DNA from: a virus
Taxonomy: Duplodnaviria; Heunggongvirae; Uroviricota; Caudoviricetes
Virus record (IMG/VR): IMGVR_UViG_2698536506_000004
DNA: 5,554 bases
Direction: 5' to 3' (one strand)
Positions 2,221 through 5,554 of the stretch are shown here, piece after piece. The notes below the pieces were generated by a model. It did not search any database. It was not told the origin of the DNA and saw only the letters and a list, made by a program, of their open reading frames with translations. The position numbers and the translations under genes were made by a program. Numbering within the stretch: position 1 is the first letter of the stretch; the number at the start of each line of letters is the position of its first letter.

Positions 2221-2275
2221 GCGGGTCCTTCCGGTGGGGAGGCCTGCCACGGGGCGGCAGCGGCGCGGATTTTCG
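2221..2275 (+). other. cos: cos site core: cosQ-like conserved block and cosN (predicted terminase nicking site; predicted 12-nt cohesive end GGGCGGCAGCGG at 2252-2263)
   Basis: 2221-2251 GCGGGTCCTTCCGGTGGGGAGGCCTGCCACG resembles the lambda right end (...GCGGGTCCTTTCCGGTGATCCGACAGGTTACG, from memory). 2252-2290 GGGCGGCAGCGGCGCGGATTTTCGCTATTTATGAAAATTTT resembles the lambda left end (GGGCGGCGACCTCGCGGGTTTTCGCTATTTATGAAAATTTT). The distance from the predicted left end (2252) to the Nu1 start (2440) is 188 nt, against 190 in lambda. Nick positions are inferred by alignment, not observed. Confidence 0.75.
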
Positions 2276-2439: not shown

Positions 2440-2988
2440 ATGAAGGTTAATAAAAAGAAGCTCGCGGAAATTTTCAACGTGGATCCACGAACGATTGAAC
2501 GCTGGCAGTCTCAGGGGCTCTCTTGTGTCTCTGGTGGTAGTAAGGGGGTTGAATCTGTATTTGATACCGCCATGGCAATTCAGTGGTATGCGCAACGCGA
2601 AGCCGATATTGAAAACGAAAAACTCCGCAAAGAGACCGAGGATTTGCGTGCGGCTGCGGAATCAGATTTACAACCCGGCACCATTGACTATGAACGCTAC
2701 CGACTCACAAAAGCACAGGCTGATGCACAGGAACTGAAAAATGCCCGCGAAGAAGGGCTGGTACTGGAAACGGAATTGTTTACCTTCATTCTGCAACGTG
2801 TGGCACAGGAGATTTCGGGGATACTTGTACGTGTGCCGCTGACATTACAGCGTAAATATCCGGATATTTCACCGTCACACCTTGATGTGGTGAAAACTGA
2901 AATCGCAAAAGCCTCCAACGTTGCAGCTAAAGCTGGTGAGAACGTAGGCGGGTGGATTGATGATTTCAGACGCACAGAAGGCAGCTAA
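2440..2988 (+). CDS. nu1: Terminase small subunit (lambda gpNu1 homolog)
   Basis: Product [41 protein letters not shown]...[28 protein letters not shown]... is closely similar to lambda Nu1 (MEVNKKQLADIFGASIRTIQNWQEQGMPVLRGGGKGNEVLY...[28 protein letters not shown]..., from memory); 182 aa against 181 in lambda. Stop TAA 2986-2988. The ORF-track start at 2422 is an over-extension into cosB. Confidence 0.93.
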
Positions 2989-4876
2989 TGCAGCCGGTGC
3001 GATAGCAACAGGGCTTGTATCTCTCAATATTCCGGTACCACTGACGACAGTTCAGTGGGCTGATCAGCATTATTATCTGCCAAAAGAGTCTTCATATACT
3101 CCCGGGCAATGGGAAACACTGCCGTTTCAGGTTGCCATCATGAACAGCATGGGGAATGACCGGATCCGCACCGTTAATCTGATTAAATCGGCGCGTGTTG
3201 GTTACACCAAAATGCTGTTGGGGGTGGAGGCTTATTTTATTGAACACAAATCCCGTAACAGCCTGCTTTTTCAGCCGACAGATTCTGCGGCAGAAGATTT
3301 TATGAAATCCCATGTCGAACCAACGATAAGAGACGTTCCTGTATTACTGGAGCTGGCTCCGTGGTTTGGCAGAAAACATCGGGACAACACGCTTACCCTG
3401 AAACGTTTCTCCTCCGGTGTGGGATTCTGGTGTCTGGGCGGAGCTGCTGCCAAAAACTACCGTGAAAAATCTGTGGATGTGGTCTGCTATGACGAACTCT
3501 CCTCGTTTGAACCGGATGTGGAAAAAGAAGGTTCACCAACTCTGCTTGGCGATAAGCGTATCGAAGGTTCGGTATGGCCTAAATCCATACGCGGCTCAAC
3601 GCCCAAAATTAAAGGTTTTTGCCAGATTGAAAAAGCCGCGAACGAATCTGCACATTTTATGCGGTTTTATGTGCCATGCCCTCATTGTGGTGAAGCCCAG
3701 TATCTGAAGTTTGGCGATGATGCGACAACCTTTGGCCTGAAATGGGAGAAGGGCAAGCCGGAGACGGTGTATTACCTGTGTGAACATAATGGCTGCGTGA
3801 TCCGTCAGTCGGAACTTGACCAGACCGACGGGCGGTGGATTTGTGACAATACCGGGATGTGGACGCGTGACGGTCTGACATTTTACAGCGCCGGTGATGA
3901 GGAAATCCCGCCACCGCGCTCAATCTCGTACCACATCTGGACGGCATACAGCCCGTTCACCACCTGGGTACAGATTGTTTATGACTGGCTTGATGCACTG
4001 AAGGATCCGAATGGCGTCAAGACGTTCATTAACACCACGCTGGGGGAGCCTTATGAAGAGGCTGTGGCAAAAAAACTGAGCTTTGAGTTGTTGCTGGAAA
4101 AAGTCTGCCACTATGATGCGCAGGTTCCCCTGCGGGTGGTTTACCTGACCGCAGGGATTGACTCTCAGAAAAACCGTTATGAGATTTATGTCTGGGGCTG
4201 GGCTCCTGGCGAAGAAGCTTTTCTGATTGACAAGCAGATCATCATGGGGAGACCGGAAGATGAGGACACCCTTAAACGCGTTGATGCCGTGATCCGGAAA
4301 AAATACCGTCATGCAGATGGCACTGAAATTTCCATTTCCCGCGTCTGCTGGGATACCGGTGGTATTGACCAGGACATTGTGTATCAGCGATCCAGAAAAC
4401 ACGGCACTTTTTTTGTGCTCCCCATCAAAGGGGCGTCGGTGTACGGCAAGCCGGTGATCACCATGCCAAAAAAGCGAAACCAGCGTGGGGTGTTTTTGTG
4501 TGAGGTGGGTTCCGATACCGTCAAGGAAATGCTGTATGCGCGTTTTGCCCTGCCGGTGGTATCTGCCAGTGAAGTCGCACCGTATACCTTCCGTTTTCCG
4601 GATAACCCGGACATTTTTTCTGATGTTGAAGCTAAACAACTCGTGGCAGAAGAGCTGGTTGAAAAAGTTGTGAACGGGCGGGTGAAACTCCAGTGGGATG
4701 CCAGAAAACGGCGTAATGAAGCTCTGGACTGTCTGGTGTATGCCTATGCAGCGCTGCGCATTTCCGTTCAGCGGTGGCAACTGGATCTGGATGCACTGGC
4801 CCGCGCCAGAAGAGATGAACAGGACGACGATGAAATGACTATTGAAGAAATCGCGGCTGCTCTGAGTGGAGGATAA
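2960..4876 (+). CDS. A: Terminase large subunit (lambda gpA homolog; ATPase/endonuclease)
   Basis: ATG 2960 (GGTGG 2951-2955 upstream; the TTG at 2957 is an ORF-caller alternative), overlapping the Nu1 3' end by 29 nt as in lambda. The product is colinear with lambda gpA over its whole length, for example [27 protein letters not shown] against lambda VEWADANYYLPKESAYQEGRWETLPFQ, and the Walker-A-like KSARVGYTK at 3185-3211. Stop TAA 4874-4876; 638 aa against 641 in lambda. Confidence 0.95.
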
Positions 4877-4879
4877 GTG

Positions 4880-5089
4880 ATGATTTATACGCATGAAATG
4901 CTATGCGATGCCCGCCGGGCGTTACATGAACTGATGATCGGACGTGCTGTGGTTTCCGTCAGCAAGGACGGGCGTCAGGTTCAGTATTCGCGGGCGACAA
5001 TTGGTGAACTGCGTCAGTATATTGAAGAGCTGGAAAGTGCGCTGGGTGTATCCGGACGGCGTCGTGGCCCGGCAGGAGTGGGGCTGTGA
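4880..5089 (+). CDS. W: Head completion / head-tail joining protein (lambda gpW homolog)
   Basis: ATG 4880 preceded by GGAGG (4868-4872) at 7-nt spacing; GTG 4877 is an alternative. Product MIYTHEMLCDARRALHELMIGRAVVSVSKDGRQVQYSRATIGELRQYIEELESALGVSGRRRGPAGVGL resembles lambda gpW ([68 protein letters not shown], from memory). Stop TGA 5087-5089. Confidence 0.85.
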   Translation: MIYTHEMLCDARRALHELMIGRAVVSVSKDGRQVQYSRATIGELRQYIEELESALGVSGRRRGPAGVGL

Positions 5090-5554
5090 ACGGGGAACTG
5101 GTGGATATTCATGGGCAGCCTTTACGGCAAAGCATGGGATATTCTGGTGGTGGTTCCGGGTTCGGTGGGCAAATGGCAGAATGGCTGCCTGCACCGGAAA
5201 GTGCCGACGTGGCGCTCTTACCTTCCATTCATCTGGGTAACGCCCGCGCGGATGATCTGGTCCGTAACAACGGTATTGCATCGAATGCAGTGGAAATTCA
5301 TAAGGATCATATTGTCGGGCACATGTTTCGTCTGAGTTACCGTCCCAACTGGCGCTGGCTGGGGATGTCGGAAGCAGATTCACATGCTTTTATTGAAGAT
5401 GTTGAGGCGGCGTGGATGGAATACTGCGATCCGGTGTTTGGTACGATGGATGTGGAAGGGCGTCGTTCGTTTACCGAATTCATTCGTGAAGGGGTGGGGG
5501 TCCATACGTTTAACGGTGAAATTTTTGTCCAGCCCGTATGGGATGCGGAATCCA
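5086..5554 (+). CDS. B: Portal protein (lambda gpB homolog), 5' part; continues beyond window end
   Basis: Frame 1 is open to the window end. Product ...GYSGGGSGFGGQ...LGNARADDLVRNNGIASNAVEIHKDHIVGHMFRLSYRPNWRWLG...GRRSFTEFIREGVGVHTFNGEIFVQPVWD matches the lambda gpB N-terminal region (GYHGGGSGFGGQ...RGNARADDLVRNNGYAANAIQLHQDHIVGSFFRLSHRPSWRYLG...FNGELFVQATWD). Start assigned to GTG 5086, which overlaps the W stop as GTGA and has AGGAG (5074-5078) at 7-nt spacing; GTG 5101 and ATG 5134 are alternatives. Confidence 0.88.
   Translation, partial: MNGELVDIHGQPLRQSMGYSGGGSGFGGQMAEWLPAPESADVALLPSIHLGNARADDLVRNNGIASNAVEIHKDHIVGHMFRLSYRPNWRWLGMSEADSHAFIEDVEAAWMEYCDPVFGTMDVEGRRSFTEFIREGVGVHTFNGEIFVQPVWDAES

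Follow-up and report, generated by a model that had tools for sequence, protein, structure and literature searches.

The window, i.e., the whole 5,554-bp stretch of DNA analyzed here, is a segment of a lambdoid prophage that is 99.9% identical to the cow isolate E. coli C5 (NZ_CP010122) and is also matched by several further E. coli isolates from cattle. It runs from lysis genes through a group of small ORFs to a cos site, which is followed by the genes of a Nu1-family small terminase subunit and a gpA-family large one (Pfam identifiers PF07471, PF05876 and PF20454), and by those of a head-tail joining protein and a portal protein. The features are as follows:

Left end of the window: holin fragment (Pfam Phage_holin_3_7)
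219-710: GH108 (glycoside hydrolase family 108) endolysin gene (RefSeq annotation)
800-1006: small Cys-rich ORF
1086-1367: small ORF
1439-1621: small ORF
1630-1812: small ORF with a lipoprotein-like LSGC motif
1975-2196: small ORF
2223-2229, + strand: cosQ heptamer GGGTCCT, the packaging termination signal, identical to the annotated phage 21 cosQ
2230-2251, + strand: cosQ-cosN spacer of the CCACG type, TCCGGTGGGGAGGCCTGCCACG, unlike the lambda/21 spacer TTCCGGCGATCCGACAGGTTACG
2247-2268: 22-bp cosN core, CCACG followed by GGGCGGCAGCGG and CGCGG (= CCACGGGGCGGCAGCGGCGCGG), twofold-symmetric and recurring elsewhere
2252-2263, + strand: predicted 12-nt 5' cohesive end GGGCGGCAGCGG, from gap-free alignment to lambda/21 virion ends
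2251/2252 (top strand) and 2263/2264 (bottom strand): nicks predicted by homology
2264-2300, + strand: conserved cosN-to-R3 spacer CGCGGATTTTCGCTATTTATGAAAATTTTTCGGGAAA, equal in length to the lambda and phage 21 spacers and highly similar to them
2301-2316, + strand: cosB R3 of the phage 21 type, predicted TerS binding site (15/16 vs. annotated phage 21 R3)
2325-2337, + strand: I1, equivalent of the IHF site (11/13 vs. annotated phage 21 I1)
2359-2374, - strand: cosB R2, inverted relative to R3 and R1 (16/16 vs. phage 21 R2)
2402-2418, + strand: cosB R1 (14/17 vs. phage 21 R1)
2440-2988, + strand: small terminase subunit TerS, Nu1 family (Pfam Phage_Nu1, E = 2e-83)
2960-4876, + strand: large terminase subunit TerL, gpA family, 638 aa (Pfam GpA_ATPase and GpA_nuclease, both full length)
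4877-5089, + strand: gpW head-tail joining protein (Pfam gpW, E = 4e-25)
5086-5554, + strand: portal protein of the lambda gpB family, running past the window end (Pfam Phage_portal_2, E = 1e-26)

The five small ORFs (800-2196) separate the lysis genes from cos, and each was without a match in the Pfam search. This region varies among window-type loci that are otherwise 99% identical, and the similarity of these loci to the window begins at about 2199-2215. Within the region, GC-rich hairpins followed by T runs can be seen by eye near 1031-1055 and also near 1373-1410, an arrangement that morons typically show. The endolysin gene is interrupted by a masked run of 307 N (374-680), at which the matching E. 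coli genomes are continuous. To the right of cos, the reading frames of the Nu1-, gpA-, gpW- and portal-family genes are intact.

The position of the cohesive end is predicted by comparison with lambda and phage 21. From cos through Nu1, A and W to B, the whole block runs colinear with phage 21, with approximately 81% DNA identity, so that the match at cos lies far beyond chance, and the Nu1 ATG is found at cos base 189 in both the window and phage 21. Aligned by MAFFT to lambda, to phage 21 and to four 21-like phages, the window shows zero gaps from cosQ through cosN to R3, and base 1 of the lambda/21 virion left end falls on 2252. Likewise, phage 21 records that start at the left end begin their BLAST alignment at window position 2252; therefore, the overhang had been placed correctly by the initial annotation at 2252-2263. 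The 12-mer GGGCGGCAGCGG is found once in the window, at these positions. Compared with the end GGGCGGCGACCT, which defines the lambda/21/434/phi80 cohesive-end group, it is not identical and carries changes at positions 8 (G>A), 9 (A>G), 11 (C>G) and 12 (T>G). This bears out the earlier remark that the distal part of cosN differs from lambda within an otherwise lambda-style cos. The accompanying statement that the first seven bases are identical and the rest differ is right as to the first seven but not as to the rest, since the C at position 10 is also conserved, giving an identity of 8/12.

By definition, a lambda-like cos site has 5' cohesive ends of 12 bases whose identity to lambda is significant (PMC4669245). 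The window contains the cosQ heptamer, the conserved left half of cosN (GGGCGG) with its CG flanks, and a complex cosB followed by TerS and TerL. CG dinucleotides flank both predicted nicks and lie exactly 12 nt apart, as at the lambda nick sites, and the 22-bp core is twofold-symmetric at 14 of 22 positions, vs. 10 of 22 in lambda. The best symmetry center within 20 nt on either side lies between 2257 and 2258, i.e., between overhang bases 6 and 7. Judged from these sequence features, positions 2223-2418 probably constitute a functional cos of lambda architecture with a 12-nt cohesive end, belonging to an E. coli lambdoid prophage. Among the IMG/VR loci that carry the cos core, zero contigs end at the predicted nick, and in a metagenome scan none of the 10 contigs with a window-type cos begins or ends there.

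An alternative is that the nick positions or the overhang length depart from the lambda alignment, e.g., as a 10-11-nt end or as a 1-nt shift tied to the shorter spacer. It draws on the cosQ-cosN spacer, which measures 22 nt and not 23, and on the 10-11 nt that lie between the conserved ACG and CGCGG in the related VT1-Sakai and Stx2 phages. However, the distance from cosN to R3 equals that of phage 21 without a gap, and it is R3 anchoring that sets the bottom-strand nick in lambda (PMC4669245); moreover, the exact 12-nt distance between the CG flanks and the symmetry center between bases 6 and 7 both agree with unshifted nicks, which makes this alternative distinctly improbable. Instead, a divergent cohesive end at the lambda-equivalent position, the other of the two readings offered by the initial annotation, appears to hold, as indicated by the gapless R3 spacing, the CG flanks, the symmetry and the occurrence of the same core at approximately 70 sites (see below).

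In VT1-Sakai (L212, AP000400), the conserved ACG and CGCGG flanks enclose 11 nt, GGGCGGGCGGG, and in Stx2_KH16-043 (L214) they enclose 10 nt, GGGCGGGCGG. These cos-like sites suggest that either overhang-length variation or defective sites occur in the family. With only 10-11 nt in the CG...CG gap of the Stx phages, the length of the overhang would vary across the wider family.

The sequences flanking the cohesive end had been described as lambda-like. This does not hold for the distance from the cosQ heptamer GGGTCCT to the predicted nick, which amounts to 22 nt for the window class and to 21-22 nt for the Fels-1 type, vs. 23 nt in lambda, phage 21 and Gifsy-1. Nor is cosB lambda-like: R3 (15/16), I1 (11/13), R2 (16/16) and R1 (14/17) are all of the phage 21 type, and R3 lies at the same distance from cosN as in phage 21. 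The window thus carries R sites of the 21 type together with a TerS recognition region of the same type. The N-terminal 26 residues of TerS show a single difference from phage 21, located outside the conserved stretch, and the 15-residue N-terminal DNA-binding stretch is identical in the two. Given the 21-type cosB sites and a TerS that is 94% identical to its phage 21 counterpart with an identical DNA-binding stretch, the packaging specificity of the window is predicted to be that of phage 21.

Variation within cosN's right half has been described. Lambda-like phages commonly differ in cosN bp 7-12, with cosQ and the CG flanks conserved among them; N15 and phiD326 differ from lambda at positions 9 and 12, and Gifsy-1 differs at 8, 9 and 11 (Feiss et al., 2015, PMC4669245). 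The site is functionally asymmetric, as G2C is deleterious whereas the symmetric change C11G has no phenotype in lambda, and positions 7-12 are under no maintenance selection (PMC4669245). Additionally, cosN-N15 is cut by TerL-lambda as well as cosN-lambda is, and chromosomes with two cohesive-end mismatches are still viable, with the yield reduced approximately four-fold (PMC4669245). The changes found in the window have natural precedents in Gifsy-1 (G8A, A9G and C11G) and in N15 (T12G). Natural cosN variants have reportedly been surveyed by Vahanian et al. in 2017 (Virology 509:140). With a precedent in nature or in experiments for each of the four substitutions, the finding is in line with the known pattern; the window end belongs to a known polymorphic cosN series, and its allele is possibly already tabulated. 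As text strings in the literature, GGGCGGCAGCGG in either orientation and the 12-mer of Gifsy-1 led to unrelated papers only. The importance of cohesive-end identity for helper-dependent packaging and cosmid compatibility had been overstated, since variation in bp 7-12 is described and tolerated and since it is mainly cosB and TerS, both of the 21 type here, and less cosN's right half, that determine specificity; the end sequence matters chiefly for the cyclization of chromosomes with mismatched ends.

The allele carried by the window at positions 8-12, AGCGG, is widespread. The identical 12-mer within the identical 22-bp core is also present in the Salmonella prophage Fels-1. An exact IMG/VR scan for GGGGCGGCAGCGGCGCGG returned 87 loci, approximately 70 of which are cos-like; they fall into six right-flank classes, and 21 are of the window type. 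The exact 22-bp core occurs in these approximately 70 cos-like loci next to at least five unrelated right flanks, and its retention there and in Fels-1 argues for selection on the cos site. A degenerate IMG/VR scan (ACGGGGCGGCNNNNNCGCGG) yielded at least 12 alleles at positions 8-12 among the matches listed, with GACCT (lambda), AGCGG, GCGCT, GGACT, GGCAT, TGGCT, GAACT and GAGGT among them. Within this polymorphic series AGCGG is the commonest non-lambda allele, i.e., a common natural variant and not a private one. A cos of the window type (at least 90% identity) is carried by approximately 51 of 5,426 complete E. coli genomes, and a cosQ-cosN segment of the window's general type (at least 80% match) by 2,071 complete E. 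coli genomes. Among isolated phages, a short-query blastn retrieved only near variants in mEp460, phi458, PhiR40_1 and others, plus Fels-1. The end of the plaque-forming mEp460, GGGCGGGAGCGG, is one base off that of the window, and phi458 ends in the near variant GGGCGGGAGCGT. When the cos region was compared by megablast with the records of isolated phages, zero phages had the exact window cos, and the INPHARED collection contains zero isolated phages that combine the exact allele with a 21-type cosB. A scan of genome contigs for the cos 21-mer gave 14 matches, zero of them in any named enterobacterial genome; 13 lie in non-enteric, mostly GC-rich taxa and look like chance matches, and the fourteenth (L229) lies in a Faecalibacterium MAG. 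Covariation between TerL and the cosN allele was uninformative, as window-type TerLs are approximately 99% identical to each other.

The window comes from a bacterial chromosome and its exact cos is absent from virion records, as would be expected if the variant cosN were a decayed, non-functional site in a cryptic prophage whose changes reflect neutral drift after packaging was lost. Several observations speak against such decay. The terminase, gpW and portal frames are intact, with Pfam matches over their full length, and the block from cos to portal is 98-99.7% conserved in approximately 20 independent IMG/VR loci. Furthermore, every change falls within the tolerated right half of cosN, and the 22-bp core is kept next to unrelated flanks and with two families of terminase, contrary to drift. 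Decay is thus highly improbable, and a functional site carrying a common natural allele remains the preferred reading.

For the IMG/VR loci listed in a sampled survey, the terminase clade was set against the allele, the left flank and the cosQ spacing. Among the matches listed, the left flank is TTACG or CTACG, the spacer 23 nt long and the allele GACCT where the terminase is of the Nu1 type (lambda, 21 and N15 clades); where it is of the Fels-1 type, the flank is CCACG, the spacer measures 21-22 nt and the alleles are many. The window class, among the same matches, joins a Nu1/21-type cosB, TerS and TerL to a CCACG flank, a 22-nt spacer and AGCGG. The Fels-1-type TerS belongs to Pfam DUF1441 and is unrelated to Nu1, and the TerL that goes with it is in the same gpA Pfam families. 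The window lacks the signature of the Fels-1/Gifsy-2/mEp460 family, i.e., a DUF1441 TerS and a TerL of approximately 700 aa, and its likeness to that family is restricted to the cosQ-spacer-cosN half, in which the cosQ-cosN spacer is 95-98% identical to spacers of the Fels-1 family with DUF1441 TerS (e.g., L014, L083, L017 and L021).

Pairwise comparison of individual loci locates the boundary between the two halves. L042, whose TerS is 100% identical to that of the window, and L021, which has a DUF1441 TerS and a 700-aa TerL, are 99-100% identical over approximately 1.3 kb upstream; this identity runs through cos base 17-18, the end of CGCGG(A), beyond which the sequences are random with respect to each other (27-30%). 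The same upstream identity, here over 2.5 kb, and the same break at cos base 17-18 are seen between L016 and L017. As near-identical upstream sequence joins either terminase family right after CGCGG(A), cosN is a precise mosaic junction. These comparisons show that two very different terminase systems have the cosQ-cosN segment in common and that cosN is a mosaic breakpoint.

Hence the cos of the window is likely chimeric, consisting of a Fels-1-type cosQ-spacer-cosN half and a 21/Gifsy-like cosB/terminase half. Alternatively, AGCGG could have arisen by independent point mutation in the 21/Gifsy lineage, from the Gifsy-1 allele AGCGT by T12G, with no Fels-1-type exchange. The closest relative of the window TerL is that of Gifsy-1 (83%), whose end is one base different, as this alternative would predict. 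Gifsy-1, however, retains the lambda-type TTACG flank and the 23-nt spacer, whereas in the window both the flank, CCACG, and the spacer, 22 nt, are those typical of the Fels-1 family, and near-identical upstream sequence meets either terminase family exactly at cosN. Independent mutation is unlikely on these grounds, and the chimeric origin is retained in what follows.

Two further sets of loci were noted in the survey. In L171 (IMG/VR), a cos at approximately 477 combines a Fels-1-type left flank (…GGTGGCCTGCCACG) and the GACCT allele with an N15-like right side and TerS, and seems to be a chimera reciprocal to that of the window. In L071 (2104-2121), L028, L058 and L091, the cos 18-mer occurs with another left flank, GTGTCCTCCCGGCG, without CCACG, and L091 has both this site and a lambda-type cos. 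Downstream of the site, L071 has genes for a membrane protein resembling cytochrome b561, for an HNH endonuclease and for both subunits, small and large, of an HK97-style terminase; its 18-mer may be the remnant of a Fels-1-type cos beside another phage module. The loci with the right flank GATTTGGAGCAT had been considered as PICI-like satellites, an identity that was dropped as the region downstream in L071 is without an rpp-like gene.

A mechanism can be proposed from the homology to lambda and phage 21. TerS, of the Nu1 type and 21-specific, would bind R3, R2 and R1, with IHF at I1. TerS bound at R3 would anchor a gpA-type TerL for nicking of the bottom strand between 2263 and 2264, and a second TerL, symmetrically placed, would nick the top strand between 2251 and 2252, which should produce virion DNA with 12-nt 5' overhangs GGGCGGCAGCGG. 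The four differences from lambda sit in the cosB-proximal right half, in which nicking would be TerS-anchored and tolerant of base changes. As to its origin, AGCGG and the cosQ-spacer segment most likely came jointly into the 21/Gifsy-type packaging module by exchange at cosN, with phages of the Fels-1/Gifsy-2/mEp460 type as their source. Lambda-type termination requires cosQ and cosN only; thus, a terminase that starts at its own cosB could end at a heterologous cosQ-cosN. By a plausible route, the terminase would initiate at one cos of a recombinant concatemer and terminate where it meets a heterologous cosQ-cosN, after which the cyclized chromosome would carry a chimeric cos, and any end mismatch would segregate to either allele after replication, as in the crosses of Feiss et al. 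(2015). Both the direction and the mechanism of the exchange are deduced from the matches listed in the sampled IMG/VR survey.

A broader hypothesis treats cosN bases 7/8-12 as an exchangeable end-compatibility allele common to two terminase systems that have diverged deeply, Nu1/gpA of the 21-Gifsy type and DUF1441 with the 700-aa gpA of the Fels-1 type. It further takes cosN as a preferred crossover point at which enterobacterial lambdoid phages swap the entire structural-gene arm against the lysis/late arm, and holds that the many alleles are kept for their effect on end-joining among co-resident prophages and satellites, which they would either restrict or allow. This extension is rather unlikely in full; if true, the window would have arisen naturally, when termination crossed between families at a heterologous cosQ-cosN.

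In practical terms, the correct virion ends of a common, cattle-associated E. coli prophage type are probably GGGCGGCAGCGG, which is of use for genome orientation, for PhageTerm-style interpretation and for predicting viable hybrids by end annealing among co-resident phages. The view of lambda packaging is unchanged by the present analysis, which agrees with free variation of the cosB-proximal half of cosN. What appears to go beyond the literature is the chimeric cos junction at cosN between two terminase families, which is also the most useful lead: a sharp mosaic junction at cosN, with two very different terminase families, bears on the exchange of packaging and lysis modules in lambdoid phages, Stx phages and satellites.

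Among known systems, phage 21 has the same architecture and spacing as the window, i.e., cosQ-cosN-cosB with R3/I1/R2/R1, a Nu1-family gp1 and a gpA-family gp2. Its gp1 is 94% identical to the window TerS and its TerL 82% identical to that of the window, the TerL of lambda being more distant (64%). However, phage 21 has the end GGGCGGCGACCT, a TTACG left flank and a 23-nt spacer, whereas the window has GGGCGGCAGCGG, CCACG and 22 nt. Fels-1, in turn, has the same 12-mer GGGCGGCAGCGG and the same core CCACG...CGCGG, as well as a TerL in the same gpA Pfam families, but its TerS is DUF1441 and not Nu1, its TerL is 22.6% identical to that of the window, and its cosB is unrelated (GATTTGGCGCATTTTTGA...CATCATCATCAT). 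The relatives of the Fels-1 cos are found in mEp460, mEp213/LLS, Gifsy-2 and cdtI-type phages, and a 2025 Genome Research paper infers GGGCGGCGCGCT for mEp213/LLS, with Gifsy-2-like heads and a distant lambda-group TerL. Gifsy-1 has the TerL closest to that of the window (83%) and a Nu1-type TerS (78%), and its overhang GGGCGGCAGCGT matches that of the window at 11 of 12 positions, with G8A, A9G and C11G common to both; it differs in the T at position 12, the lambda-type left flank, the 23-nt spacer, a CGCAG right flank and another cosB. Finally, N15 and phiD326 have T12G in common with the window. The N15 end, GGGCGGCGTCCG, is off lambda only at positions 9 and 12 and is followed by a simple cosB with a single R3, and such right-half variants are cut efficiently and their mismatched ends are viable in experiments.
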